From Oleiphilaceae bacterium (lineage in GTDB: Bacteria; Pseudomonadota; Gammaproteobacteria; Pseudomonadales; Oleiphilaceae), in assembly GCA_965230795.1 (NCBI GenBank), contig OZ246020.1, forward strand, positions 1,554,585 to 1,618,584: a stretch of 64,000 bases of DNA, in the 5' to 3' direction. This document shows positions 26,960 to 41,537 of the stretch, in pieces; position 1 is the stretch's first letter, and the number at the start of each line of letters is the position of its first letter. Both the position numbers and the translations under genes were made by a program. Below the pieces are notes generated by a model. The model saw nothing but the letters and a program-made list of their open reading frames with translations, was not told the DNA's origin and searched no databases.

Positions 26960-27701
26960 TTAGCCTGTGCCGGAGAACAGGCTGCGATAGAGAATCAGCA
27001 GTGCCGCCAGAGAGGAGACGCTGAGTACTGCGGGGCGTATGACCGCCGCTGGCAGGCGTCGATTCAAGTGCCCCGACAGCCAGTAACCCAGTGCAATGCT
27101 GGGTATCAGACTGGCACCCAGAACAAATTCTTCAGGTCCGAATTTGTCTGCCGAATACAGTGCGGTTAACGACAGGATGCCGCCGGGAACAAAGATGGCG
27201 GAAAGCGTGCCCGGCAATCGCGGGCCGCTGACTTTTTGGAACACCAGTGACAGGGGTGGTCCGCCGATGGCAGTAATGGTTCCCATAAACCCGGACAAGG
27301 CTGCGGCCGTGCCGATGTAGGGTGGTCGCGGATCCGGAAATTCCCGCAGCAGGCTGATGCCGACGCTGACCAGTACCAATGTCCCCAGAAACACTCCCAG
27401 CCCCTTTGGCGAGATCCATTCGATCACCAATGCCGCGGCGAAGGTCCCGACGGCGAGCCCTGGAAGCGCCCAGAGAATATCCCGTTTGATGACGGCTTTA
27501 TGATCGCGGAAGACGATCATCAGTGGCAGCAGCATGCCGATCATGATCAGGGGGGCAGGGATAAAACCCGGATAAATCAGATACAAAAGCGGTACGCCAA
27601 ACACGCCGATGCCATAGCCGATGATGCCCTGAACCGTTGAAGCAAGAACAATGACGAGGCTGGCGAGAAGCCAGTCGCTTGCTGAAATCGGAAAGTCCAT
27701 T
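26960..27701 (-). CDS. TauE/SafE-family sulfite/anion exporter membrane protein
   Basis: MDFPISASDWLLASLVIVLASTVQGIIGYGIGVFGVPLL... About 8 TM helices; the duplicated 4-TM repeat pattern of TauE/SafE is present. Confidence 0.75.
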
Positions 27702-27825
27702 CTCGGTGGTGGGGCCTTTTTGTCAGAGTGGTTTGAAAGTTGAGAAGACCTGGGTGAATATACCGGACAGATCAGTCGAGATATTTCCGGACTCTCACAC
27801 AATTTTCACTAATGGTGCCAGCACA

Positions 27826-28536
27826 ATGACGGATCAGCAATCGCTTCCAAAATTTAAACAAACCTACGAAAGAGCCGTGGAGAGAAAGGGGGGGAAGCAG
27901 GCGCTGGAAAAGTTATTACGCACGCCCGATTCGCCGGACGACATTCGCGCTATCCCCGAAGATCGCTTTCTGTCCACCATGACCAAGTGTATTAACCAGG
28001 CGGGATTCAGTTGGAAGGTAATCGAGCAGAAGTGGCCAGAGTTCGAAGAAGCCTTTTTTGGTTTTAAGGTGGATACCCTGAGTTTGTTATCGGATGAGCA
28101 GTGGGAAGCCTATACCCAGGATCGGCGTGTTGTACGCAGCTGGCAGAAGATCAAGGCGCTGAAGGAAAATGTTGCCTGGCTCTACGAAGAAAAGACGGCA
28201 AGGGATGGTATCGCCGAGTTGATTGCGGCCTGGCCGGATGAGGATTACGTGGGCTTGCTGGCTTATCTCAAGAAGCATGGTTCACGCCTGGGTGGAAACA
28301 GCGGTCAGCGTTTTCTGCGCTACATGGGCAAGGACAGTTTTGTGTTGTCAAAGGATGTGGTGACCTGTCTGATCGGCTGTGGTCTGGATCTCAAACCTGA
28401 ACCTTCCAGCAAGCGGGAAATGGAGCTGATTCAGGCTACCTTTAACGCCTGGAAGCAGGAGAGTGGCCGCCCCTTTGTTCAGCTTAGTCAGATAGCGGCC
28501 TTTTCCGTTGGGGATAATGTGGTGGGTTTGGTCTAG
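27826..28536 (+). CDS. DNA-3-methyladenine glycosylase I (Tag)-like protein
   Basis: Core CINQAGFSWKVIEQKWPEFEEAFFGFKVDTLS...GGNSGQRFLRYMGKDSFVL...VVTCL resembles the Tag HhH glycosylase. Start set at MTDQQSL. Confidence 0.6.
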   Translation: MTDQQSLPKFKQTYERAVERKGGKQALEKLLRTPDSPDDIRAIPEDRFLSTMTKCINQAGFSWKVIEQKWPEFEEAFFGFKVDTLSLLSDEQWEAYTQDRRVVRSWQKIKALKENVAWLYEEKTARDGIAELIAAWPDEDYVGLLAYLKKHGSRLGGNSGQRFLRYMGKDSFVLSKDVVTCLIGCGLDLKPEPSSKREMELIQATFNAWKQESGRPFVQLSQIAAFSVGDNVVGLV

Positions 28537-28600: not shown

Positions 28601-28890
28601 GGGGTATCAAGTGTCGAGCTGAATAATTCTGTGTGACTTGTATCGGCTTTTTTTGTTTTGATTGCTTTCCTTTCTGTTTTTTTTGCTAACTTAATTGCGC
28701 TGCTCGCAGCTTTCCAGGGATGAATTGCCTGTCTGAAAACACGGATGTACTTGATCTTGATTTGTTATTTTTAGTTTTCATCGTATTCGGTCATTTTTTA
28801 TAGCGGGTGCTCCCCTTTTATATGTCCAGTAGAATGCGCTCATTAAAAATTACATGTAAAATGTTGAAATATTACATGTAATAAAATATA

Positions 28891-29556
28891 GTGGTTTCCA
28901 TGAAAGCAAAATCATCTGCACATTATCAGCGTGAATATCGCAAACGCCTGCGAGAGCAGGGTTTGGTTAAAAAGGAGGTGTGGATACTTCCGGAAAACGC
29001 GAAGCGCCTTTCTGCCTACGAGAAAGTGCTTCGGTCGCGTGTTTCGGGGGAGTCTGCCCAGTTTGATTTTCAATTAGGAGTGAGTGGAATGAGCAATGAT
29101 TCAGATAGTGTCTTGAAAGCCTGGACGACTGAGGGCTTGTTGGATGCCTTGGGTAAGGAGTCCTTGGTTAGCAGTGGCCAGGCAAGGATAGAATTAATTG
29201 ATGGGTTGGAGTCAACGCTGCTGATCGAGATGAAAGAGTATGGAGACCTTCCTGTATTTCTGACGGTTTCCGGTGAGCAGATTATTGTTGAGGCTGTCAT
29301 GTGGTCAGTGGATGAAGTGACCGATGTGGCCGCATTTAACGATGCGATTCTGCGGACTCATAAATTTTTTCCTTTATCCACAATCAGTTTGGACAAGGTC
29401 GGTGAAGAAGGAGATTACTATCACATGTTCGGGGCGTTGAGCTCGACATCTCTGCTCTCCAACGTGGTGTTTGAAATTGAAGTTTTGGCAAGCAACGTAA
29501 TTCAGGCAACAGAAGCTTATAGTGAGTTTTTGTCCGTCCCTGTGGCCGCTAACTGA
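28891..29556 (+). CDS. hypothetical protein, first gene of the PspA-flotillin cluster (possibly DUF2170/YjfI-like)
   Basis: 221 aa, acidic, no TM. It directly precedes a PspA-like gene, as yjfI precedes yjfJ in E. coli. The basic N-terminus (HYQREYRKRLREQGLVKKEV) could bind nucleic acid. Confidence 0.45.
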   Translation: MVSMKAKSSAHYQREYRKRLREQGLVKKEVWILPENAKRLSAYEKVLRSRVSGESAQFDFQLGVSGMSNDSDSVLKAWTTEGLLDALGKESLVSSGQARIELIDGLESTLLIEMKEYGDLPVFLTVSGEQIIVEAVMWSVDEVTDVAAFNDAILRTHKFFPLSTISLDKVGEEGDYYHMFGALSSTSLLSNVVFEIEVLASNVIQATEAYSEFLSVPVAAN

Positions 29557-29574: not shown

Positions 29575-30267
29575 ATGAATATATGGGCGAAAATGATGAC
29601 TGCGCTTCGTGGAGGTGTTAACGAGGCGGGTGAGGCTCTGGTGGACAGTCAGGCCCTAAGGATTCTGGACCAGGAAGTTCGTGAGGCTTCGCAGGCTTTA
29701 CAGGATTCCAAGAACAGCTTGGCTGAGATTATGGCTCGTCAAAAGGTCGCCGAAGAGAAGTGTGCGTCCTTTAAAAAACAGATCAAAGAACACGAGGGTT
29801 ATGCTATCAAAGCGCTCGAGAAGGCGGACGAGAGGCTGGCTCGTGAAGTGGCAGAAAAAATTGCTGATTTGGAAAGCCAGTGTAGTCAAGAGCAGGAGTC
29901 TGCTGATGGCTTTGCTGCAAGTGCAGAGAAGATGCGAATGGCCATCAAGCAAACAGAGCGTAACCTTAAGCGTTTGAAGCAACAGGTTGATACGGTCAAA
30001 GCCACTGAGAATGTTCAGCGGGCGCAGGCAGCAGTGGCTGAGCGTCACAGTGGCTCGCACTCAAAAATGAGGACAGCAATGGATTCACTTGATCGGATCA
30101 AAGATAAACAAGCGCTGAAGGCAGCGCAGATGGCTGCGGCGAGTGAGTTGGCAGAACAGACCTCCGACGTCTCGCTGCAGGCGAAACTTGAAGAAGCTGG
30201 CATCGCTGGAAGTGGCAGTAGTGCCGACGATATTCTGGAGCGCTTGAAGAGCAAAGCTTCTAAATAA
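29575..30267 (+). CDS. PspA/IM30-family protein (ESCRT-III superfamily)
   Basis: MNIWAKMMTALRGGVNEAGEALVDSQALRILDQEVREASQALQDSKNSLAEIMARQKVAEEK... An all-helical coiled-coil of 230 aa typical of PspA/YjfJ. Confidence 0.8.
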   Translation: MNIWAKMMTALRGGVNEAGEALVDSQALRILDQEVREASQALQDSKNSLAEIMARQKVAEEKCASFKKQIKEHEGYAIKALEKADERLAREVAEKIADLESQCSQEQESADGFAASAEKMRMAIKQTERNLKRLKQQVDTVKATENVQRAQAAVAERHSGSHSKMRTAMDSLDRIKDKQALKAAQMAAASELAEQTSDVSLQAKLEEAGIAGSGSSADDILERLKSKASK

Positions 30268-30298: not shown

Positions 30299-30988
30299 AT
30301 GTTTGCGATATTTTTGATGGATGACATGGATCCGTTTTACCAGAACATTGCGTCATTTCCGACTGTAATTTTTACCTTTCTATTATTGCTCGTCGTGCTT
30401 TACTGGTTGGTGGCAGTTTTGGGATTGATAGACATCGATGTGCTCGATTTTGATATACCTGAAGCAGATGGAATGGACATCAATCCAGATACGGGCTTGA
30501 CTAATGCCAACGTGCTGGCCGGGCTCATGCTGCGTTTTGGACTTCATGGTGTTCCGGTAACGATTATTCTGTCGTTCATCGCGTTATTTGGCTGGTTTGT
30601 TTGTTACTACGCAGTTCATTTTCTCATGGGGATCATTCCGGAGGGCTTGCTCGCTTTTCTGGCGGGTATCCCGGTTTTTTTTGCATCCCTTTATGTTTCA
30701 GTAATGGTAACGGCATTAGTAATCAAACCGCTGCGGCCACTTTTCAGCAAGGCGTCTCAAGACACCTTGAAAAGGGTACTGGGTCAGACGGCGATCGTTC
30801 GTACCTCGCGTGTTGACAATAATTTTGGGGAAGCAATTCTCGAGGATGGTGGCGCTGGTTTACTTCTCAAAGTGAGAACGATTGGCGAGACAACTTTCTC
30901 AAGGGGAGACAGGGTTGTGCTGCTTGAATATGACAAAGAAAAAAATACTTACCGTGTAATTTCTGAAGAAGAATTTGCCGGTAGCTAA
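30299..30988 (+). CDS. NfeD-like membrane protein (YqiJ/YuaF-like, flotillin partner)
   Basis: Four or five TM helices, then a C-terminal OB-fold NfeD domain (GQTAIVRTSRVDNNFGEAILEDGGAGLLLKVRTIGETTFSRGDRVVLLEYDKEKNTYRV). It immediately precedes the flotillin gene. Confidence 0.7.
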   Translation: MFAIFLMDDMDPFYQNIASFPTVIFTFLLLLVVLYWLVAVLGLIDIDVLDFDIPEADGMDINPDTGLTNANVLAGLMLRFGLHGVPVTIILSFIALFGWFVCYYAVHFLMGIIPEGLLAFLAGIPVFFASLYVSVMVTALVIKPLRPLFSKASQDTLKRVLGQTAIVRTSRVDNNFGEAILEDGGAGLLLKVRTIGETTFSRGDRVVLLEYDKEKNTYRVISEEEFAGS

Positions 30989-31025: not shown

Positions 31026-32975
31026 ATGACCGAGAGTTTGCCGTTGTTGATGCCTATTCTATTTGGCGTCGGAATTTTCTTTATCATTTTGATGGGGTTG
31101 GCCGCGCTCTTCAAAGCTTTCTATATCAAGGTAGAGCAGGGCACAGCCCTTATCGTAAACGACATGTCGTCGAAACCGAAAGTGCATTTCACCGGCGCAC
31201 TGGTATATCCGATCATTTACAAAAAAGAGTTGATGCGCATTTCGCTTATCACTCTGGAAATAGATCGTCGAGGCAAAGATGGTTTGATCTGCGCAGACAA
31301 TATGCGAGCGGATATCACTGTCGCATTCTATCTGCGGGTGAATGAAACCGCTGAGGACGTTTTAAAGGTTGCCAAATCAATCGGTTCAAGTCGTGCTTCC
31401 GATAAAGACGCGGTCAATGAGCTTTTTAACGCGAAGTTTTCTGAAGCCTTGAAGTCGGTTGGTAAGCAGGTTGAATTTGTCCAGCTGTTTGAAAACAGGC
31501 AAAAGCTGAGAGATTCAATTGTTGAGTGTATTGGCAACGATCTGAATGGTTATGTTCTTGAGGATGTGGCCATTGATTATCTGGAGCAAACACCCAAGTC
31601 CGCTCTGGATCCTCACAATATTCTTGATGCGGAAGGTATTCGCAAGATTACAGAGCTCACCGCCACACAAAATGTACAAACCAACAATTATGAGCGAGAT
31701 GAAGAACTCGCCATCAAGAAAAAGAACGTTGAGACAGTGGAAGCGATGTTATCACTGGAGCGTCAGCAGGCAGATGCGGAAGCCAAACAGGAGCGTGAGA
31801 TCGCTACGTTGCGTGCGCGCGAAGAAGCTGAAACCAAGAAAGTCCAGGAGGAGCAGCGCAAGATTGCAGAGGAAACCACAATCAAGGTGGAGCAGGAGTT
31901 GCAAGTTGCTGCAGAGAACCAGAAGCGGGAAATCGAAGTTGCGGAACAGAATCGTCTTCGCGCCGTCGCGATTGAAGAAGAAAAAGTGGTTCGTGCTAGA
32001 GATCTGGAAGTCGTCGACAGGGAGCGTCAGGTTGAGCTGGACAAAATCGCCGCTGAAAAAGCCCTGGAGGTTGAAAAGAAAGAAATTGCCAACGTTATCC
32101 GTGAGCGAGTTGCAGTAGACAAAACGGTTGCGGTTGAAGAGGAGCGTATAAAAGAAGTACGTGAAGTCTCAGAGGCAGATCGACAGAAGCAAACGCAGGT
32201 GCTGGCTGCGGAGGCTGCGGCTGAAGAAGATAAAGTCAAGCAAGTAAAAGCCGCAGAGGCAGAGGAAATCGCGGCGAAACACAAAGCAGTCGAGATCACG
32301 ACGATTGCTCAGGCGGAGCTCGAGGAAGCAGCCAAAAAAGCGGATGCGAAGAAGAAATTGGCCGAGGGTACACAGGCAGAAAGGGCCGCGCCAGGCTTGG
32401 CTGAAGCAAAAGTACAGGAAGCGAAAGCGGCTGCCCTGGAGAAAGAAGGACGTGCTGAAGCGGAAGTTATAAGAGCCAAAGGTGATGCAGAGGCGGATGC
32501 CTTGTCTGGTACAGGTAAGGCGCAGGCAGATGTGACCGCAGCACAGGGTGACGCTGAAGCACAAGCGGCCAGACAGTTAGGTCTCGCAAACGCAGAAGTT
32601 ACTCGTGAGCAGTTTAAAGCGGAAGCCGATGGTTTGGTTGAAAAGTTTGAGGCCATGAACACGATGAGTGAGGATGCTCGAGAGCACGAAGAGTACCGAA
32701 TGGGACTGGAGACTGCGCTGAAAGAGGCATTGGCATCTATCGAGGCTGGTAAAGATATCGCTAAAGAAAATGCCGAAGTGCTTGCCGTGGCCCTGCAGAA
32801 GGCGAAGATTGATATCGTTGGTGGTGAAGATCACTTCTTCGATAATTTCGCCAAGTCACTTTCAATTGGTAAGGCGGTAGATGGTCTGGCCGGTAAGAGT
32901 GATACGATTCAGTCACTGATCGATAGGGTGATTAGCGGCAAGAAGCCGACGGTTGTGGACGCAGAAAACGACTAG
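31026..32975 (+). CDS. flotillin-like SPFH/band-7 protein (FloT/YqiK-like) with long EA-rich coiled-coil
   Basis: N-terminal TM hairpin; SPFH domain (QGTALIVNDMSSKPKVHFTGALVYPIIYKKELMRISLITLEIDRRGKDGLICADNMRADITVAFYLRV). Extended flotillin E/A repeats follow (AEAKQEREIATLRAREEAETKK...). Confidence 0.85.
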   Translation: MTESLPLLMPILFGVGIFFIILMGLAALFKAFYIKVEQGTALIVNDMSSKPKVHFTGALVYPIIYKKELMRISLITLEIDRRGKDGLICADNMRADITVAFYLRVNETAEDVLKVAKSIGSSRASDKDAVNELFNAKFSEALKSVGKQVEFVQLFENRQKLRDSIVECIGNDLNGYVLEDVAIDYLEQTPKSALDPHNILDAEGIRKITELTATQNVQTNNYERDEELAIKKKNVETVEAMLSLERQQADAEAKQEREIATLRAREEAETKKVQEEQRKIAEETTIKVEQELQVAAENQKREIEVAEQNRLRAVAIEEEKVVRARDLEVVDRERQVELDKIAAEKALEVEKKEIANVIRERVAVDKTVAVEEERIKEVREVSEADRQKQTQVLAAEAAAEEDKVKQVKAAEAEEIAAKHKAVEITTIAQAELEEAAKKADAKKKLAEGTQAERAAPGLAEAKVQEAKAAALEKEGRAEAEVIRAKGDAEADALSGTGKAQADVTAAQGDAEAQAARQLGLANAEVTREQFKAEADGLVEKFEAMNTMSEDAREHEEYRMGLETALKEALASIEAGKDIAKENAEVLAVALQKAKIDIVGGEDHFFDNFAKSLSIGKAVDGLAGKSDTIQSLIDRVISGKKPTVVDAEND

Positions 32976-33065: not shown

Positions 33066-36000
33066 ATGGAACAGCATGATCTGTCGGCTGACAATGGAGC
33101 CAATTTAGTTGATCAAGCCGTTGCAGAAGGTGGTGCTTACGAAGTAATCCGCAAGCGCCTGGTTCAACAAAGCAAGCAGTTGTCAGATGTTACCTCTGCG
33201 TTAAATGCCGGTCGCCTGAATGAGTTCGGCAGTTCGGACATGGAAGTGATCGGTCGAGTACGGGTGCGTACCGAGAATAACTGCATCGCCAGGGATATTG
33301 TTCAGGTGGGGCCTCACCTGCTGTTCGGATATAACGTTTTCATCGGATTGAAAAAAGAAACTGCGGTTAGTGATGTATTTGCTCTTTTTGATGTCAAACA
33401 GACGGAGCAGGGTTTTGATCTCGAATCTGTCGACTTGGATAATTCTTTCCTGGCACATCCGGGGTTCGTCAACGACTTTGATGAACTGTATCGCTATTAC
33501 AAAAATACGCGCTTAATCCAGTTGCGGGTCAAGGACGGAAAGCTGCTCGCGGGTTTCCAGATTGGTGAGCGTCTCAGTGATGTGCGGGTTTTTCGCTGGG
33601 CTTTGTCTCCTGATGGCCAGGTTGAATATATTGACAATCGTGGTGAAAGGGATCTTGAGTTACCTTCACCCTACGATTTTGAATGGACGTTTACAACAAG
33701 GGATGACAGCGTTCAGGGGCGCCATCCCCATATTAATGTGCTCGATACGGTTTTTGTTGAGACCACTGATGGCGATTTGACCATTAAGGTAGAAAATAAC
33801 ACGGAAAATGGTCTAGGGATTTATAGCGAGCCTGTGGAAGACAAAACCCAATCTTTGGATGATGCCCAGATTGCCTATGCGAGCGTAGGCGGATTGATAC
33901 TTCTGAAGATAAGACCCTATCGGGAGGAGGCTTGGCGTTATCTTATTTTTAACACTGTCACTCAGGAAGTCGTGCGACAGGATGCGATTGGTGAATCATG
34001 CGTCCAGTTACCTGAGGATCACGGCATCATTTTCCCAGGCGGTTATTATTTGCAGTCGGGTGAGAAGAAGGCGTTTGATGATGGTGTGACGGGGCTTAAA
34101 TTCAAAAGAGTGCTGCGGTCTCCCAACGGCGAGGACGTGTTATACGTCTTTTACCAACCGGAAGAGGGTATGGTCGGTCTTTTCGCCTACAACCTGATCG
34201 AAAAGCAATTACAGAATCCGGTTTATGGACACGGCTATGCCTTGGCAGAGGACGGTAGCCTGGTTATTTTTCAAGCTGAGGAAGAACCAACCAGAGTGCA
34301 TCCCATGCAGATCTGGAAAACCCCGTATGAGAGTGTGGAGCATGCGAGTAAAGCTCCTCCAAGTCAGACGTTTTTCGGGCGTATCGGTAACGCAGAGCTG
34401 GTTCGTGGAATCTCCGATCTCTACAGTATTTGTCGTCTGGTCGACAATCAGTCAGTGTCGCTGCGGCAATACGAAGAGCTAAGCAGAGCGGCGAAAAAAA
34501 TCTTCGATGATCATTACTGGTTGGAGGAGGCTGAGACCAGTAAGATCGCTTCATGTGTCAGGGATATATGTGCTACTTCGGAGCTGGTCATTGATGAGTT
34601 TGAGAAGGTTGAGAGCATTCGGGAACAGTCTGCCAAAACCATGTCTGAAGCTTTTCACGATCAGGAGACGCTGCTCGCCGAAGCGCGGCCCGATAACTGG
34701 GAGCTTGCAGAAGAGTATGTGGATGCGTTGAGCAAAGTGCGTAAACAGCGCGGTCATTTGGTGGGTATCAAATCGCTGCGCTACATCGATGTTGCGCGCA
34801 TCGAGGCGATGGAGAATGAGCTGACAGAGAGGGAGCATGAGCTCACGCAGGCGACGGTTGAGTTTCTGTCTGATGAAAAAGCCCTTAATCCCTATCATGA
34901 AAAAATTGCGGGTCTCCAGGCCGATATTGATAAATCCGAGACCAAGGCTGAGTTGTCCCCGTTAATCGAGGCCGTTGAAAAAACTGCCGCGGGTCTGGAT
35001 CTGCTCTCGGAAATCATGGGGGCACTTAAGGTAGATGATGCGACTGTTCGAACTCGCATCATTGATGCTGTCACTGAGGTTTACGCAAAGCTAAACCAAA
35101 CTAAAGCCGCTGCAACGCGGAAGAGCAAATCTCTTGGTTCGTCGGAAGCGGTTGCCCAGTTTTCTGCTCAGTTCAAACTTTTTTCACAGACCATTGCCAA
35201 TGCACTTGGGGTTTCCAACACTCCTGAAAAGTGCGATGAACAGTTATCGCGCCTGTTAATTCAACTAGAGGAATTTGAAAGTCAATTCAGTGATCATGAC
35301 CAGTTTCTCGCGGACATCATGGAGAAGCGGGAAGAGGTCTATGAATCCTTCGAATCCCATAAACAGCAACTCTTGGATGAGCGACAGCGCAAGGCTCAGA
35401 CCCTGGCCGATGCGGCAAACCGTATTCTGGGCAACATAGAAAAGCGCTCGCTGAAGTTCACCGAGAAAGACGATTTAAATACCTATTTCGCTTCAGATGC
35501 CCTGGTTATCAAAGTGCGCGAGCTGGTTTCTGAATTGCGGAATTTGGACAATGCAGTCAAAGCTGACGATTTGGAATCTCGTTTCAAGGCGATCAAAGAA
35601 CAGTCACTACGATCCCTGCGCGACAAAACAGAGATCTATGAGGCGGGTGGAAATGTCATCAAGTTGGGGCCTAGACATCGCTTTTCCGTGAATACCCAAG
35701 ACCTGGATCTTACCATCATTCCACGTAATGGGATTCTCAATATCCACCTGACCGGTACGGATTATTTTGAAGCTATTCATTATTCAGAACTGATGCAGCT
35801 CAAAGACTATTGGGACATGTCGCTCGAGTCTGAAACATCAGCAGTGTATCGTAGTGAGTACCTGGCATATCGTGTCATAGAGGCAGCACAGAACAACCAG
35901 CAGGGATTGAGCATGCCAGCTTTGATGCAGTCTATCAAAGATGATGAGTTTTCGGGCCTGGTGAAGGACTTTGCTGCCCCGCGCTATAAGGAAGGCTACG

Positions 36001-38468
36001 AAAAAGGCATTCACGATTATGATGCGACCTTGATACTAAAAGCCTTGCTGCCTTCTTTGCATATGGCAGAGCTGTTGAAGTATGACTCGACAAGCAGAGC
36101 CGTGGCACAGGTTTTCTGGTCCCACACGACTCGAGCTATAAAGGATAACAAAGATCGAAGAGTCCATGACCAATCCGCAGATGTCTGGTTGAAAACAGCC
36201 GTGACGTGGCCAGTCCGTGCCCGAGCTGCTATGCAGCTGAATAGCAGTCTGTCCAGTCGTAAAGCTGTAGATCTGTTGGCTCAGGAGATTCTTGATTACC
36301 TCAAGTCGTTTTTAGAAAAACATCCAATCGAAATTCCGAATCATACTATTAGACAGGCTGCTTACTATCTGGTTGACGAGTATGGTCGGGACGACTTTGC
36401 GTTCGTTACAAGTCAGTATGGTTTGGATTTGGTAGAAGAGCTGAAGCGCAGCACGAATGACTTAGCCTGGAATACCTTTGTAGCTTCTCTGCGTGAACTG
36501 GATTCAAACCCTGCCGAAAAGTGGAAAGTCGCTGAGGCTTGGCTGCAGGCGATGGTCGATTCGTTGCCACAAGACAACGAAACTCAGGCTAAGAAAGGTC
36601 GTTATCTTGCCGAGGCGATAGCTCTTCTTGTTGAGCCTGATAGCGTTCCGCGCCGGACCAGCAATGTGGAGCTTGAACTGCTTGTCGAAGGCTTGCTTGG
36701 CGAGCATGCTCGCATATCCAAACAGCGTATGGCTGTCGGAGTTGACGATTTTCTGTCCCGGATGAAACATCATTGTGAGGAAGTAATACCGGCCTATCAG
36801 CACTATCTTCGTACCCGTCAGGAGGTCATCTCAAAAGAGAGAGAGGCTTTGAGGCTGGAAGAGTTCAAAGCGCGGCCACTAAGTTCATTTGTACGCAACC
36901 GCTTGATCAATGAATCCTATCTTCCCTTGATCGGCGATAATCTGGCTAAACAAATGGGAACGGTCGGAGAAAACAAACGATCCGATTTGATGGGTCTGCT
37001 AATGATGATTTCGCCACCAGGTTATGGCAAAACGACATTGATGGAGTATGTCGCCAATCGCCTGGGCTTGATTTTCATGAAGATCAATTGCCCTTCCTTG
37101 GGGCATGATGTGTTGTCTCTGGACCCCCAGCAGGCTCCGAACGCAACGGCAAGACAAGAGCTCGAAAAGCTCAACCTGGCGCTGGAGATGGGAAATAATG
37201 TGATGCTTTATCTGGATGATATTCAGCATACTCATCCAGAATTTCTGCAGAAATTTATCTCCCTGTGTGATGGCACCAGACGTATTGAAGGTGTCTGGAA
37301 AGGGAAAACCAAAACCTATGATATGCGCGGACGCAAGTTCTGTGTGGTAATGGCAGGTAATCCCTACACGGAATCTGGTGAAGCCTTCAAAGTACCCGAC
37401 ATGCTGGCAAACCGGGCAGATATCTACAACCTTGGCGATATTCTAGGCGGCATGGATGAACAGTTTGCGCTCAGTTATGTGGAGAATGCTCTGACTTCAA
37501 ATGCTGTATTGGCGCCTCTTGCAGTCAGGGAAATGGGGGATGTTTACAAACTGATTGATATGGCAAAGGGCAAAGAAATTGCAACCACTGATCTGAGCCA
37601 CCAATACAGCGGTGCTGAAATTAGTGAAATCACAGAAGTTTTGAAAAAGATGTTTGTGATTCAGGACGTGGTTCTCAAGATCAATAAACAATACATAGCA
37701 TCCGCTGCTCAAAACGATAAGTACCGGACTGAACCCAGCTTCAAGTTACAGGGCAGCTATCGCAATATGAACAAAATGAGTGAGAAGCTTTCGGCTGTCA
37801 TGAACGATGCAGAGCTTATGCAGATGATTGAAGATCATTATCTAGGGGAAGCCCAGCTGCTGACTTCAGGCGCAGAAGATAATCTTTTGAAGCTTGCTGA
37901 ATTGCGCGGAAATATGACAGATGAGCAGTCAGCCCGCTGGCAAGAAATCAAACGTGATTTTCTTCGTGATAAAGCTATGGGAGGCGATAGCGCTGATGTG
38001 GGAGCAAAAGTCGTCGCTCAGCTCGTAGACATCGTAAGTGGACTGCGAGATCTCAAGGCTGTCGCGCAAGAGGCGGTTGAACGTGGTGACACAAAAGACG
38101 CGGAACAGGTGAATGAGACTCCGCGGCAGGACATGCTAACCCTGGAGCAGCTTTCTCGAGAAATGGACAAACTGGTTGGTGCTCTAAAGAGCCACCGACC
38201 AAACGTGGAAGTGGTAAACCAGCCGGTACCCGGCATCGACAAGATTCTTTCTGTATTGGCAGATTCCATTGAGCATAGTTTGATGCCCGTTGTTAAGAGC
38301 ATGGACAAGAAGCTCGATATTGATTTGCGAACGCATTACAAGTTGAGAGATGTGTCTGAACAGCTGAGGAATCTTGAGCATGCTATAGGGCTTGAGGATC
38401 ACAAGTCCGGAACAAGTTCTCTGCGCACGGATACGGAAGATTCGGATCTCCAAAGCCGGGAAGAATAG
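33066..38468 (+). CDS. giant (1800 aa) multidomain protein with AAA+ ATPase of the AAA_5 (MoxR/dynein/McrB-like) type near the C-terminal third
   Basis: RBS aaaaggaaaaagttcATG. Walker A MMISPPGYGKTTLMEYV; Walker B VMLYLDDIQHTHPEF; sensor/arginine region FCVVMAGNPYTESGEAFKVPDMLANRADIYNL. The N-terminal ~450 aa are a beta-rich globular region, followed by about 700 aa of helical and coiled-coil sequence. No TM segments. Confidence 0.7.
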   Translation: MEQHDLSADNGANLVDQAVAEGGAYEVIRKRLVQQSKQLSDVTSALNAGRLNEFGSSDMEVIGRVRVRTENNCIARDIVQVGPHLLFGYNVFIGLKKETAVSDVFALFDVKQTEQGFDLESVDLDNSFLAHPGFVNDFDELYRYYKNTRLIQLRVKDGKLLAGFQIGERLSDVRVFRWALSPDGQVEYIDNRGERDLELPSPYDFEWTFTTRDDSVQGRHPHINVLDTVFVETTDGDLTIKVENNTENGLGIYSEPVEDKTQSLDDAQIAYASVGGLILLKIRPYREEAWRYLIFNTVTQEVVRQDAIGESCVQLPEDHGIIFPGGYYLQSGEKKAFDDGVTGLKFKRVLRSPNGEDVLYVFYQPEEGMVGLFAYNLIEKQLQNPVYGHGYALAEDGSLVIFQAEEEPTRVHPMQIWKTPYESVEHASKAPPSQTFFGRIGNAELVRGISDLYSICRLVDNQSVSLRQYEELSRAAKKIFDDHYWLEEAETSKIASCVRDICATSELVIDEFEKVESIREQSAKTMSEAFHDQETLLAEARPDNWELAEEYVDALSKVRKQRGHLVGIKSLRYIDVARIEAMENELTEREHELTQATVEFLSDEKALNPYHEKIAGLQADIDKSETKAELSPLIEAVEKTAAGLDLLSEIMGALKVDDATVRTRIIDAVTEVYAKLNQTKAAATRKSKSLGSSEAVAQFSAQFKLFSQTIANALGVSNTPEKCDEQLSRLLIQLEEFESQFSDHDQFLADIMEKREEVYESFESHKQQLLDERQRKAQTLADAANRILGNIEKRSLKFTEKDDLNTYFASDALVIKVRELVSELRNLDNAVKADDLESRFKAIKEQSLRSLRDKTEIYEAGGNVIKLGPRHRFSVNTQDLDLTIIPRNGILNIHLTGTDYFEAIHYSELMQLKDYWDMSLESETSAVYRSEYLAYRVIEAAQNNQQGLSMPALMQSIKDDEFSGLVKDFAAPRYKEGYEKGIHDYDATLILKALLPSLHMAELLKYDSTSRAVAQVFWSHTTRAIKDNKDRRVHDQSADVWLKTAVTWPVRARAAMQLNSSLSSRKAVDLLAQEILDYLKSFLEKHPIEIPNHTIRQAAYYLVDEYGRDDFAFVTSQYGLDLVEELKRSTNDLAWNTFVASLRELDSNPAEKWKVAEAWLQAMVDSLPQDNETQAKKGRYLAEAIALLVEPDSVPRRTSNVELELLVEGLLGEHARISKQRMAVGVDDFLSRMKHHCEEVIPAYQHYLRTRQEVISKEREALRLEEFKARPLSSFVRNRLINESYLPLIGDNLAKQMGTVGENKRSDLMGLLMMISPPGYGKTTLMEYVANRLGLIFMKINCPSLGHDVLSLDPQQAPNATARQELEKLNLALEMGNNVMLYLDDIQHTHPEFLQKFISLCDGTRRIEGVWKGKTKTYDMRGRKFCVVMAGNPYTESGEAFKVPDMLANRADIYNLGDILGGMDEQFALSYVENALTSNAVLAPLAVREMGDVYKLIDMAKGKEIATTDLSHQYSGAEISEITEVLKKMFVIQDVVLKINKQYIASAAQNDKYRTEPSFKLQGSYRNMNKMSEKLSAVMNDAELMQMIEDHYLGEAQLLTSGAEDNLLKLAELRGNMTDEQSARWQEIKRDFLRDKAMGGDSADVGAKVVAQLVDIVSGLRDLKAVAQEAVERGDTKDAEQVNETPRQDMLTLEQLSREMDKLVGALKSHRPNVEVVNQPVPGIDKILSVLADSIEHSLMPVVKSMDKKLDIDLRTHYKLRDVSEQLRNLEHAIGLEDHKSGTSSLRTDTEDSDLQSREE

Positions 38469-38479
38469 GGCATTCCAGA

Positions 38480-39073
38480 ATGTTCCCCGGTCTTTGGCTC
38501 AAATTCAGGCTGCTCATTTGTTTGTTAGCGGTCATGATTGGGGTTCATGCGGTGAATATGACGCTGGACGGACAGCTTATTCAATACGGGATTATTCCAA
38601 GGTCAGAGGAACATTGGTTTCATGTGTTCATCTCACCTTTCATTCATGTTGATCACGTTCATTTGCTTAACAATTTGTTCGGGCTGGCAATATTCAGCGT
38701 TCTTTGCCTAATGCGTTCGGTAGGACTGTATATCCTCTGCAGTATTTTTGTTATCACCTCAACAGGTTTATTGGTGTGGTTGTTCGCTCGCAGCGCCATT
38801 CACCTTGGTGCTAGTGGTTGGATATTTGGTTTATGGAGTTTTGCCATTGCGATTGCCTGGTTTGATCGGAAATTGATAAACATTGTTTCCAGTTTTCTGG
38901 TGGTCTTTTTATATGGGGGGATGATTTACGGCGTATTGCCTAGTGATCCAAATGTTTCTTTTGAAGCTCATCTTTTTGGCGCTTTGTCAGGTGCGTTGTT
39001 TGCATTTTTTTATTCAGTGTATGTGAAAGCCACGCGGCGTTCTCAATCACGGTCTTCAGTGGCGGGGAACTGA
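38480..39073 (+). CDS. rhomboid-family intramembrane serine protease
   Basis: Six TM helices; catalytic GxSG (IHLGASGWIFGL) in TM4 and His (AHLFGALSGALFAFF) in TM6. Confidence 0.75.
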   Translation: MFPGLWLKFRLLICLLAVMIGVHAVNMTLDGQLIQYGIIPRSEEHWFHVFISPFIHVDHVHLLNNLFGLAIFSVLCLMRSVGLYILCSIFVITSTGLLVWLFARSAIHLGASGWIFGLWSFAIAIAWFDRKLINIVSSFLVVFLYGGMIYGVLPSDPNVSFEAHLFGALSGALFAFFYSVYVKATRRSQSRSSVAGN

Positions 39074-39075
39074 AA

Positions 39076-39924
39076 GTGCTTGCTTGGCTGATTGAAAAGA
39101 TAAAAGACTATTCCTCGTTCACCGATTCCAAGGTGATCATTCAGTGGCAGGCTGGATGGTCTGACTTTTTGAGTGAAACGGTAACGTTTTATCGAACGCT
39201 AGACTCCGAGGACAAGAGAGTGTTCGAGGAACGCGCTCGACTGTTTCTGGAAACCACGACTATTGAAGCTGGACAGTTTGAAGTGAGTGATGAAGATCGC
39301 TTGCTGGTTGCGTCGAGTGCGGTGATTCCTGTTTGGGGTTTTCCGGATTGGCATTACTTTAATGTCAGTAAGGTGTTTCTATTGCCTGCATCGTTTAACG
39401 AGCGTTTCGAATGTGGTCAGCCCGATTCTGTGATCACCGGAATGGTGGGTAGCGGCCCTATGTCGGGAAAGCTTGCTCTGAGCCGTGCTGCTTTGCATCA
39501 GGGTTTCAAGAATGACGAGGACAAGCACAACGTGGGCATTCATGAGTTTGTGCATCTGGTGGACATGGCCGATGGCGATTGCGATGGGTTCCCGGAGCGG
39601 CTTAAGAAATATGCCTACTCGATTCCATGGTTTGAGCTTGTAGAGAAGAAAATTAGCGGGATCGAGACGCGTCGTAGCAATATTCGCGACTATGGTGCTA
39701 CCAACAAAGCAGAGTTTTTGGCCGTCGCATCAGAGTACTTTTTTGAACGGCCCGAAATGATGCAGAAAAAGCATCCTGAGCTTTATCAGGCACTGTCCGA
39801 TTTCTACCAACAGGATGTAATGCGAATTGCTTTGGATATCAGGCCCAGAAAGAAGGCTACTTGTCCATGTGGGAGCGGTAAGAAATATAAACACTGTTGC
39901 ATGAAAAAAATTCAGCGCAAGTAA
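39076..39924 (+). CDS. MtfA-like zinc metallopeptidase (peptidase M90) fused to C-terminal SEC-C zinc-binding motif
   Basis: HExxH (GIHEFVHLVDMADGDCDGFPE) and an MtfA-type C-terminal block (AEFLAVASEYFFERPE...LYQALSDFYQQD). The final residues CPCGSGKKYKHCCMKK are a canonical SEC-C motif. GTG start directly after the rhomboid stop. Confidence 0.8.
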   Translation: MLAWLIEKIKDYSSFTDSKVIIQWQAGWSDFLSETVTFYRTLDSEDKRVFEERARLFLETTTIEAGQFEVSDEDRLLVASSAVIPVWGFPDWHYFNVSKVFLLPASFNERFECGQPDSVITGMVGSGPMSGKLALSRAALHQGFKNDEDKHNVGIHEFVHLVDMADGDCDGFPERLKKYAYSIPWFELVEKKISGIETRRSNIRDYGATNKAEFLAVASEYFFERPEMMQKKHPELYQALSDFYQQDVMRIALDIRPRKKATCPCGSGKKYKHCCMKKIQRK

Positions 39925-39956
39925 TGGTGGCAACAAATACTCTAAAGGAGACGGTG

Positions 39957-40502
39957 ATGAAATGTCCCCAATGCAAAGGTTATGAGCTTGAGCCGAAAGA
40001 ACTGGAGCCAGGTCTGATTGTTGGTGCCTGTTCGAAATGTAATGGTACCTTGGTATCACTGATGAACTATCGCTATTGGGCGGATCAGCAGGGCAGTCAC
40101 GCGTTAGCTGAGCCGCTCGAAAACGATGACGTATCGGAAGCTGAAGATAATGCAAAGGCTCAGGTCTGTCCCAAATGTGCCAAGTTGATGACAAAGTTTC
40201 AGATCGGTGCGGAATCTTCGAACCGCTTGGACCTTTGTACGGGATGTGATGAGGCATGGCTCGATAAGGGTGAATGGAAGTTATTGAAGCAACTGGATCT
40301 GGCAGATAAATTGCCCTCAATTTTTACCGACGCCTGGCAACGTAATATCCGGTTGGCGAGGCAGGAAAAACTGCACAAGCGACGATACGAAAAATTGTTG
40401 GGAACTGATGACTTCACAAAACTGAATGAATTCAAACAATGGCTCGAACTGCATCCTGAAAGAGAACAAATTAAGCAGTATTTGATAACGAAACTGGATT
40501 AG
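39957..40502 (+). CDS. double zinc-ribbon protein
   Basis: CPQCKG...CSKCNG and CPKCAK...CTGCDE pairs, each CxxC-N17-18-CxxC, with a helical C-terminus. Start at the ATG 6 nt after AAGGAG. Confidence 0.55.
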   Translation: MKCPQCKGYELEPKELEPGLIVGACSKCNGTLVSLMNYRYWADQQGSHALAEPLENDDVSEAEDNAKAQVCPKCAKLMTKFQIGAESSNRLDLCTGCDEAWLDKGEWKLLKQLDLADKLPSIFTDAWQRNIRLARQEKLHKRRYEKLLGTDDFTKLNEFKQWLELHPEREQIKQYLITKLD

Positions 40503-40838: not shown

Positions 40839-41537
40839 TTGAGTAAACATACGAGAATTGAAGAGTTCCTTTGCGTTTCGTTTGAAGATTTCAAGCTCTC
40901 CCAGGGCGAGAAATATTCGTTGAGAGAGCTTTTGGATAACTTGGGAGACAATGAGCTGTTGTCGTTTGCCCGTAATAAGGCCTTTGATTTATATCGGGAG
41001 TACCATATTGCCGAGTCTGGGGATTCTCTGCAGGGTCTCAACTGGTTGGAGAAAGTTATCAAAACGATCGATAACGTCAGGCTAAACAGCATCGAGTCCA
41101 ACTCTTACGCGTATTTTAGTCCAGGTCCTGAATGCGCCAGGCAGATCATCAACTGCTTGCATGGCGCAAGAGAAACCATTGATATATGCGTGTTTACGAT
41201 CTCCGACAATCATATTACTGACGCGATTCTATCAGCACACGAGACTGGGAAGAGTGTTCGCATCGTGAGTGATAATGATAAAGCAAAAGATAGTGGCTCC
41301 GATATTTACTATCTGGCTGAAAAAGGTGTGCCGGTCCGGCTAGATAAAAGTCCCTACCATATGCATCATAAGTTCGCGATTTTTGACCAAAATCTGCTGA
41401 TCAATGGCAGCTTTAATTGGACTCGAAGTGCCACCATGAAGAACGAAGAAAATATAACCGTTCTGCATGATTCAGGCTTGATCGGCTCTTTTTTATCTTC
41501 CTTTGAGGAATTGTGGTCAGAGTCGAAAGATATATAG
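40839..41537 (+). CDS. phospholipase D-like (single HKD motif, Nuc/endonuclease-type) protein
   Basis: HMHHKFAIFDQNLLINGSFNWTRSA is a canonical HxK(x)4D(x)6GSxN motif present in one copy (dimeric Nuc-like). The listed start is TTG; the real start is uncertain. Confidence 0.7.
   Translation: MSKHTRIEEFLCVSFEDFKLSQGEKYSLRELLDNLGDNELLSFARNKAFDLYREYHIAESGDSLQGLNWLEKVIKTIDNVRLNSIESNSYAYFSPGPECARQIINCLHGARETIDICVFTISDNHITDAILSAHETGKSVRIVSDNDKAKDSGSDIYYLAEKGVPVRLDKSPYHMHHKFAIFDQNLLINGSFNWTRSATMKNEENITVLHDSGLIGSFLSSFEELWSESKDI

Follow-up and report, generated by a model that had tools for sequence, protein, structure and literature searches.

The closest described relative of the locus discussed here is the bac operon of Pseudomonas aeruginosa. 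Genes PA3732-PA3729 were named bac in 2008, and PA3731, which encodes a PspA-like protein, was shown to be required for biofilm formation, swarming, rhamnolipids and virulence, and to be induced by osmotic shock (PMC2587700). Reverse-transcription PCR (RT-PCR) extended this operon in 2024 to a co-transcribed bacABCDEF, the 'biofilm-associated cluster', in which BacE is PA14_16190; in a bacA mutant the BacB-F proteins were up 6-13-fold (PMC10948618). PA14_16160 is a short NfeD protein and PA14_16180 is the SPFH protein PaFlo3 (PMC13086221); a role in membrane dynamics has been proposed (PMC11237479), and in cystic fibrosis isolates PA3728, listed as an ATPase, is mutated recurrently (PMC8190622). 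In the literature we found no paper testing the DUF3686/BacE ATPase itself. Here we describe a gene for such an ATPase in a 64,000-nucleotide stretch of the genome of an Oleiphilaceae bacterium (contig OZ246020.1, positions 1,554,585 to 1,618,584; this whole stretch is referred to as the window), and we consider what its linkage to flotillin-like and PspA-like genes may mean for its function.

Judged by its sequence, the 1800-residue protein is a member of the Pfam DUF3686/BacE family, as every defining feature of the family that we examined is present. It is the predicted orthologue of P. aeruginosa BacE/PA3728, a placement that draws on the Pseudomonas-genus loci in our collection (L014, L019, L020, L026 and L030) and on published descriptions (PMC8855297, PMC10948618). 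By those descriptions and loci BacE has the same domain architecture as the window ATPase, and the Pseudomonas-genus loci have the same gene order, with 54-56% identity over the C-terminal 940 residues. In the P. aeruginosa operon, CesT-like BacA, PspA-like BacB, short NfeD BacC and SPFH BacD/PaFlo3 precede the ATPase; in the window the ATPase gene is likewise fifth in a co-directional run of bacA-like, pspA, 229-residue multi-transmembrane, SPFH, ATPase, rhomboid, M90 peptidase and zinc-ribbon genes, a 98-residue open reading frame (ORF) and a PLD/HKD gene, with junctions that are short or overlapping. Compared with bac, the window operon has extra M90/SEC-C peptidase and zinc-ribbon genes, and it has a sigma70-like promoter with two copies of TTACATGTAA instead of the sigma54 site that was proposed for P. 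aeruginosa.

Pfam PF12458 (DUF3686) matches residues 39-484 of the ATPase with 686.7 bits (E 1.4e-206, cut-off 25), over profile positions 2-448 of 448; PF25472 (DUF7902) matches residues 605-688 with 96 bits; and the AAA, AAA_22 and AAA_5 matches begin at residue ~1310. The combination of DUF3686, DUF7902 and AAA is present in 26/26 diverse homologues (32-55% identity), the set to which all statements of invariance below refer. Full-length homologues number in the thousands: a search of 5.8 billion proteins gave more than 6370 homologues, the top 120 of which (64-100% identity) all have the same architecture, with Pseudomaricurvus and Teredinibacter as the nearest named genera. The C-terminal 940 residues, searched against 1.84 billion 50%-identity representatives, matched 1305 proteins at E<=1e-3, of which 450 also pass E<=1e-30, and almost none of these were cross-matches to other AAA+ proteins; this suggests that the ATPase module is strongly divergent from the rest of the superfamily. 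The family comprises 450-934 clusters at 50% identity and is a self-contained, mid-sized lineage. Scanning the ATPase with NCBIfam gave no matching model, and PDB sequence searches, run with the sequence by itself and with two profiles of the family, yielded nothing beyond sub-significant matches of the Walker A region, to Rix7, RuvB and p97, with no match for the propeller, rod or middle domain described below.

Homologues are named in databases as 'DNA repair ATPase', 'AAA family ATPase' or 'MoxR-like ATPase', and DUF3686 itself is called 'ATPase involved in DNA repair'. A function in DNA repair draws on these names only, and we give it next to no chance of being correct: neither Pfam nor NCBIfam finds a match to SMC, Rad50, RecN or another DNA-binding domain, the P-loop belongs to a C-terminal AAA+ module and not to a split ABC head, the conserved neighbours are all membrane-associated proteins, and we found no literature on a repair role. 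We therefore reject the label as a carried-over name with no domain support. Identity with the SMC/Rad50/RecN proteins was also rejected, there being no SMC_N or related match and the sole P-loop lying in the C-terminal AAA+ module.

An earlier note on this DNA, made by a model from the letters and their reading frames without database searches, had proposed the 1800-residue protein, and the ORF proves to be real: it is uninterrupted from its ATG through 1800 codons (product of ~200 kDa), has AGGA 9 nt 5' of the ATG, and shares its N-terminus with homologues, the alignment with 93 of them starting at residue 1. The 90-bp gap that the note gave between this gene and a flotillin gene agrees with the upstream stop at 32975, and the upstream gene does encode an SPFH protein. 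The absence of transmembrane segments, also proposed there, was found again in a Kyte-Doolittle scan of the full length, where the maximum 19-residue mean was 1.17 against a threshold of 1.6; a cytoplasmic location of the ATPase is therefore predicted.

Two AlphaFold2 models, built from 94-sequence alignments, cover residues 1-900 (predicted local distance difference test, pLDDT, 83.7) and 861-1800 (pLDDT 76.9). After a long N-terminal helix comes an all-beta domain, mostly at pLDDT 85-94, in which DSSP finds ~28 strands in seven groups of four. Its Foldseek matches, to WD40, prolyl-oligopeptidase and trilobed-protease propellers, have a probability of ~1.0 but E-values of only 1e-6 to 1e-3 and low TM-scores; as modelled, residues ~59-420 are a seven-blade propeller-like domain that is distant from every solved propeller. 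The beta-rich, possibly propeller-forming N-terminal domain of the earlier note is thus borne out, whereas its view that the first ~450 residues hold no obvious motif fails against the DUF3686 match. Its coiled coil at residues ~480-1150 survives in part: a spectrin-repeat-like rod is modelled at ~436-855, but residues ~880-1260 form a compact helical domain, modelled with confidence, that is not coiled coil. This middle domain, which has no assigned family, carries a G-[IV]-H-D-x-D motif, of which G981, H983, D984 and D986 are invariant. The analogy with dynein, midasin or SMC proteins is a loose one. The protein is large and soluble, and it shares with dynein and midasin an AAA_5-type module, long helical extensions and a very large polypeptide; it has one AAA module against their six concatenated ones and hence no concatenated ring, no significant match to them beyond the generic AAA+ core, and no SMC/ABC heads.

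The AAA+ core and lid, to residue ~1560, are the best-conserved region of the protein, with 40 invariant columns. Walker A, Walker B, MAGNP and the arginine motif LANRAD (residues 1447-1452) are all invariant, as are GNPYTE and LQGSYR, and both Walker motifs are found in each of 80 related loci (described below), so that the Walker A, Walker B and sensor region is intact, as had been read from the sequence at first. Walker A agrees with the GxxxxGK[ST] pattern (PPGYGKT, residues 1317-1323). N1432, R1450, D1452 and R1566 are invariant; by position N1432 would be sensor-1, R1450 a candidate arginine finger and R1566 a candidate sensor-2, and the R1450 segment is of low pLDDT in the AlphaFold2 monomer model. 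The strands of a predicted pre-sensor-1 hairpin (1407-1411 and 1414-1418) follow the Walker B helix and precede the sensor-1 strand. In Walker B, D1384 and D1385 are invariant, with D1385 at the position of the usual Glu, and by these motifs the protein is an AAA+ ATPase with a non-canonical Walker B. PF00004 (AAA) gives the top score, 30-31 bits, but aligns over profile positions 2-72 only; AAA_5, at 25-28.6 bits (cut-off 22), aligns over positions 2-125 of 139, takes in the entire core and matches 25/26 diverse homologues, so that the AAA_5 assignment of the earlier note holds. AAA_22 matches of 26-28 bits occur in 26/26.

Among described AAA+ proteins, the MoxR/AAA_5 remodellers (CbbQ, NorQ, RavA) share with the window ATPase the AAA_5 match over the whole core and the predicted pre-sensor-1 hairpin; we also take the NP-x-x-E-x-G...P-x-x-L-x-N-R of the window ATPase to resemble the MoxR sensor-1/Arg region. 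It differs from them in its size (1800 residues, where MoxR-type proteins have roughly 250-500), in its DD Walker B and in having no helix-2 insert hairpin evident in the AlphaFold2 model, where the segment after beta-2 (1346-1359) is a loop. Two further MoxR hallmarks are lacking: the AAA_3 profile stays below cut-off (13.5 vs 27 bits), and no VWA domain was found in the nine neighbouring proteins scanned with Pfam. The RuvB_N profile is below cut-off, too.

To see how the gene is accompanied elsewhere we used 80 loci from GTDB species representatives, 46-67% identical over the C-terminal 940 residues and mostly from Gamma- and Betaproteobacteria, while Zetaproteobacteria and Acidobacteriota are represented by a single metagenome-assembled genome each; upstream counts refer to the 65 loci with enough upstream sequence and downstream counts to 72. 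Homologues of the 229-residue (NfeD-like) and flotillin-like proteins are encoded directly 5' of the ATPase in 65/65, and when distant loci are included the flotillin-like gene adjoins the ATPase upstream in 68/69 informative ones. Even among metagenomic homologues of 33-38% identity, a Band_7/flotillin gene is directly upstream in three loci; the ATPase directly follows NfeD-like and SPFH genes in 3/4 informative distant loci, and one distant locus has a convergent PspA gene just 3' of the ATPase. This suggests that the linkage survives rearrangement. BacA and PspA genes accompany the ATPase in 39/65 loci, in divergent orientation in 5 of those 39, while downstream a rhomboid gene is found in 14/72, a PLD gene in 16/72 and a zinc-ribbon gene in 7/72. 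The physical linkage to PspA and flotillin genes, remarked upon in the earlier note, is thus seen well beyond the window: that to flotillin/NfeD is near-universal, and that to PspA/BacA is frequent but facultative. The C-terminal helical tail of the ATPase is absent in 29/65 loci; BacA and PspA are present in 28/36 loci with the tail vs 11/29 without it (odds ratio 5.7, Fisher p 0.002, with kinship of the loci ignored), a correlation that is only a lead. In Xanthomonadales and Enterobacterales the tail and BacA+PspA both tend to be missing.

In bacteria, the PspA/Vipp1 proteins of the ESCRT-III superfamily build large assemblies on membranes, and so do flotillin/SPFH proteins; we know of no established ATPase that remodels either. 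NfeD-type partner genes are typical of SPFH operons. The reading that we think best, and to which we give an even chance, is that the ATPase is an energy-consuming remodeller or organiser of a flotillin/PspA membrane-stress scaffold at the cytoplasmic face. The flotillin-like protein has an N-terminal anchor only, so that its bulk can face the cytoplasm; with putative partners that form large homo-oligomeric assemblies at that face, protein-binding modules and a conserved AAA+ core, a remodeller or organiser is the simplest reading. The ATPase gene holds the fixed third place in an nfeD-flotillin-ATPase module, embedded here in a bacA(CesT-like)-pspA operon. With its propeller-like head, its rod or its middle domain the protein would attach to the oligomeric flotillin (SPFH) assembly, and the same docking modules could also bind PspA where it is present. 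The AAA+ module, probably a ring, would use nucleotide binding and hydrolysis on these flotillin/PspA assemblies, and its action might assemble, open or dismantle them. Partner binding, oligomerisation and the direction of remodelling are what we infer here, beside the observed identity, architecture, motif conservation and gene linkage. HflK/C-FtsH, an SPFH cage that encloses an AAA+ protease, offers a parallel, since there too an SPFH oligomer of the inner membrane goes together with an AAA+ enzyme; FtsH, however, is a membrane-anchored classical AAA protease, whereas the window ATPase is soluble, lacks a protease domain, is of a different AAA+ type and has propeller, rod and middle domains.

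Several observations weigh against a remodeller of this kind. The hhhhDE Walker B with its catalytic Glu is replaced by LYLDD, because of which fast hydrolysis is not assured, and the pore-loop-1 position is taken by a conserved NCPSLGHDV...DP with no aromatic residue. At one locus (L084 8001-12830, GCA_031454105.1) a 39%-identical full-length member has no flotillin, NfeD or PspA genes nearby, making this the sole informative locus to break the flotillin linkage, and deletion of paFlo3 (PA14_16180) gives only a mild biofilm phenotype (PMC13086221). The neighbours at L084 are of Bacteroidota type and include a TonB-dependent receptor with a CarboxypepD_reg domain. As to the earlier judgement, drawn from the intact motifs, that the ATPase is 'probably active', the acidic residue kept at D1385 suggests that activity is possible though non-canonical; the invariant Asp in place of the Walker B Glu and the pore loop without an aromatic residue qualify it. 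These last two features argue against a fast threading motor of the Vps4/Clp style, threading not being favoured because the aromatic pore loop is lacking, and would be compatible with a MoxR-like mode of action, in which the ATPase pulls on a segment of its partner, or with a switch.

A protein that is altogether a nucleotide-dependent switch or scaffold, and not a motor, would let ATP binding control oligomerisation and would tether or organise flotillin/PspA platforms, its hydrolysis being slow or regulatory as in NTPases of the STAND type. The invariant hhhhDD Walker B and the pore loop fit such a switch, as do the AAA_22 matches throughout the diverse homologues and the ~1300 residues of protein-interaction-type modules (propeller, spectrin-like rod, helical domain). 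Yet the sensor-1 Asn, R1450 and the sensor-2-like GSYR are invariant, as in a hydrolysing AAA+ ring, the AAA_5 alignment spans the whole core, and the predicted pre-sensor-1 hairpin is typical of remodelling AAA+ clades; overall we consider a pure switch unlikely.

Since a PspA gene lies in the same operon, the ATPase might instead be a bacterial counterpart of Vps4, that is, a hexameric unfoldase that threads and disassembles PspA polymers specifically. An AAA+ ATPase encoded beside a PspA of the ESCRT-III superfamily, with membrane-polymer remodelling a plausible task, does resemble the Vps4/ESCRT-III pair; the PspA linkage in 39/65 loci, the convergent PspA neighbour at a distant locus and the correlation of the C-terminal tail with BacA+PspA point the same way, and a 2025 review finds that a Vps4-like ATPase appears to be absent from bacteria, no equivalent being known (PMC7619361). 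Against this, the N-terminal parts show no MIT domain or other Pfam match of that kind, the PF00004 alignment covers the Walker A-to-B half only, an aromatic-hydrophobic pore loop is lacking, and where a classical second region of homology (SRH) would be expected there is just one conserved Arg. Moreover the flotillin linkage is the tighter one, PspA being missing in 26/65 loci and flotillin in none of the 65. We regard a specific PspA unfoldase as improbable. The ATPase does not belong to the Vps4, SMC or McrB families, because the defining features of each that we examined were not found.

The PLD/HKD protein at the end of the run allows a different proposal, in which the locus is a module for conflict or defence against phages, the ATPase being its sensor or motor and the PLD protein its nuclease effector. 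This protein has weak PADLOC matches to DrmC, MkoC and DpdK, the G+C content of the region is below that of the window's first 28 kb, and a WYL-domain gene adjoins one distant homologue. No PADLOC model, though, matches the ATPase, flotillin, NfeD-like or BacA-like proteins, PLD is found in only 16/72 loci, the order of the module is kept across many genera like that of a housekeeping stress operon, and no tRNA or mobile-element signature was seen; a defence role is, in our opinion, very unlikely. McrB-like identity was also rejected, as neither an McrC partner nor a defence-model match was found. A full-length match of the ATPase to any solved structure or characterised family such as McrB, which the earlier note had named as a result that would overturn its view, was not found in PDB, structure or PADLOC searches.

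The features of the locus are listed in the table below.

Table. Genes of the co-directional run and domains and motifs of its BacE-type ATPase, in window coordinates (residue numbers refer to the ATPase unless the row is for another gene).
Feature	Position	Strand	Basis or remark
bacA-like gene (DUF2170/CesT-like), basic N-terminal extension	28900..29556	+	Pfam DUF2170, NCBIfam
pspA/IM30 homologue, bacB-like	29575..30267	+	Pfam PspA_IM30, 164.5 bits
Multi-transmembrane protein with soluble C-terminal domain, bacC/short NfeD/YqiJ position	30299..30988	+	transmembrane 14-51, 72-145
SPFH/flotillin-like protein, bacD/PaFlo3-like	31026..32975	+	N-terminal transmembrane 1-37, Band_7
BacE-type ATPase gene (DUF3686-DUF7902-AAA+)	33066..38468	+	ORF, Pfam, >6370 homologues
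N-terminal long helix, residues 7-54	33084..33227	+	AlphaFold2 helices 7-21, 23-54
Beta-propeller-like domain, residues ~59-420, core of DUF3686	33240..34325	+	AlphaFold2, Foldseek
Spectrin-repeat-like helical rod, residues ~436-855	34371..35630	+	AlphaFold2 model
DUF7902 inside rod, residues 605-688	34878..35129	+	Pfam
Small beta subdomain and globular helical middle domain, residues ~880-1260	35703..36845	+	AlphaFold2 model
G-[IV]-H-D-x-D motif of middle domain, residues 981-986	36006..36023	+	conservation
AAA+ alpha/beta core, residues ~1306-1465	36981..37460	+	
Walker A SPPGYGKT, residues 1316-1323	37011..37034	+	present in 80/80 loci
Walker B LYLDDIQH, residues 1381-1388, DD variant	37206..37229	+	
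Predicted pre-sensor-1 beta-hairpin, residues 1407-1418	37284..37319	+	AlphaFold2 strands
Sensor-1 MAGNP (1429-1433) through PDMLANRAD	37350..37421	+	conservation
Lid helices ~1466-1560 and LQGSYR 1561-1566	37461..37763	+	AlphaFold2 helices, invariance of LQGSYR
Variable C-terminal helical tail, residues ~1641-1800	37986..38465	+	low pLDDT, lowest conservation
Rhomboid-family membrane protease, 11 bp past ATPase stop	38480..39073	+	Pfam Rhomboid, 68 bits
M90 (MtfA-like) peptidase, C-terminal SEC-C motif	39076..39924	+	Pfam
Zinc-ribbon protein	39897..40502	+	Pfam
PLD/HKD-superfamily protein, last in co-directional run	40839..41537	+	Pfam PLDc_2, 97.6 bits

The neighbouring proteins were assigned with differing ease. 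The bacA-like protein matches the NCBIfam model 'biofilm formation regulator BacA' with 303.5 bits vs a cut-off of 300. The SPFH protein gave an empty Pfam scan over its whole length, and its matches came from scanning in pieces: Band_7 in the N-terminal 235 residues (32.5 bits vs a cut-off of 23.6) and a weak Flot match, 16.3 bits, in the C-terminal part. For the 229-residue protein, the NfeD/YqiJ assignment is taken from published work (PMC13086221, PMC11237479), the homology not being reproduced by Pfam or PDB searches. The M90/SEC-C gene is packed between the rhomboid and zinc-ribbon genes, 2 bp away from one neighbour and overlapping the other; beside the ATPase in the 80 related loci no homologue was found, because of which the gene looks lineage-specific. 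The PLD gene has been described as an operon member in some Proteobacteria (PMC11237479).

The G+C content of the window is ~0.53-0.57 over 1-28 kb and ~0.40-0.50 over 28-64 kb, the fall beginning at the bacA-like operon, and a tRNA scan of the whole window found no tRNA gene that would mark an island. Just 5' of the operon, an ORF at 27679-28536 has a partial Adenine_glyco match (profile positions 34-103 of 177), and it could be degenerate or have a wrongly called start.

Upstream of the bacA-like gene the palindrome TTACATGTAA occurs twice, at 28850-28859 and 28872-28881, where 0.03 copies would be expected in the window, and the two copies overlap TTGAAA-17-TATAGT (28864-28892), which is the region's best sigma70-like promoter. 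The palindrome lies directly 5' of the bacA-like ORF in 11/80 related loci belonging to several families, with two copies in six of them, and the pair is probably an operator of the operon. No sigma54 -24/-12 consensus was found in this upstream region. The probable start codon of the bacA-like protein is ATG 28900, which is at, or within a few bases of, the transcription start predicted from the promoter, so that the mRNA may be leaderless. Ahead of its DUF2170 domain the protein has a basic segment, YQREYRKRLREQGLVKKEVWILPENAKRL, which has a ribbon-helix-helix-like look and a weak NCBIfam match to the plasmid repression protein UrfF; such a segment would fit BacA as a repressor of the operon (PMC10948618).

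The DUF3686 family is already in Pfam, was placed in this operon by comparative genomics and is named bacE in P. aeruginosa; the gene in the window brings no new principle beyond the comparative-genomic proposal of 2024. What the analysis does bring is a set of experimental handles, namely the limits of the domains, the DD in Walker B, the lack of an aromatic residue in the pore loop, the invariant HD-x-D motif of the middle domain and the conserved operator-like palindrome. A bolder form of the remodeller reading, which we consider doubtful, is that these proteins are the missing bacterial energy source for ESCRT-III/SPFH remodelling: a ring-forming AAA+ machine that is a lineage by itself would act while the envelope is being repaired and would open up or take apart flotillin cages and polymers of PspA, and the middle domain, through its G-[IV]-H-D-x-D motif, would add a second, metal-dependent or ligand-sensing activity.

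The P. aeruginosa counterpart belongs to an operon tied to biofilm and virulence, and to recurrent mutation in cystic fibrosis isolates. The question at stake is what powers the remodelling of ESCRT-III and flotillin assemblies in bacteria. A candidate has already been flagged by others, and this family, with its large size, its conserved ATPase core and its genetic lock to flotillin/NfeD and often to PspA, is the obvious candidate for the remodeller.

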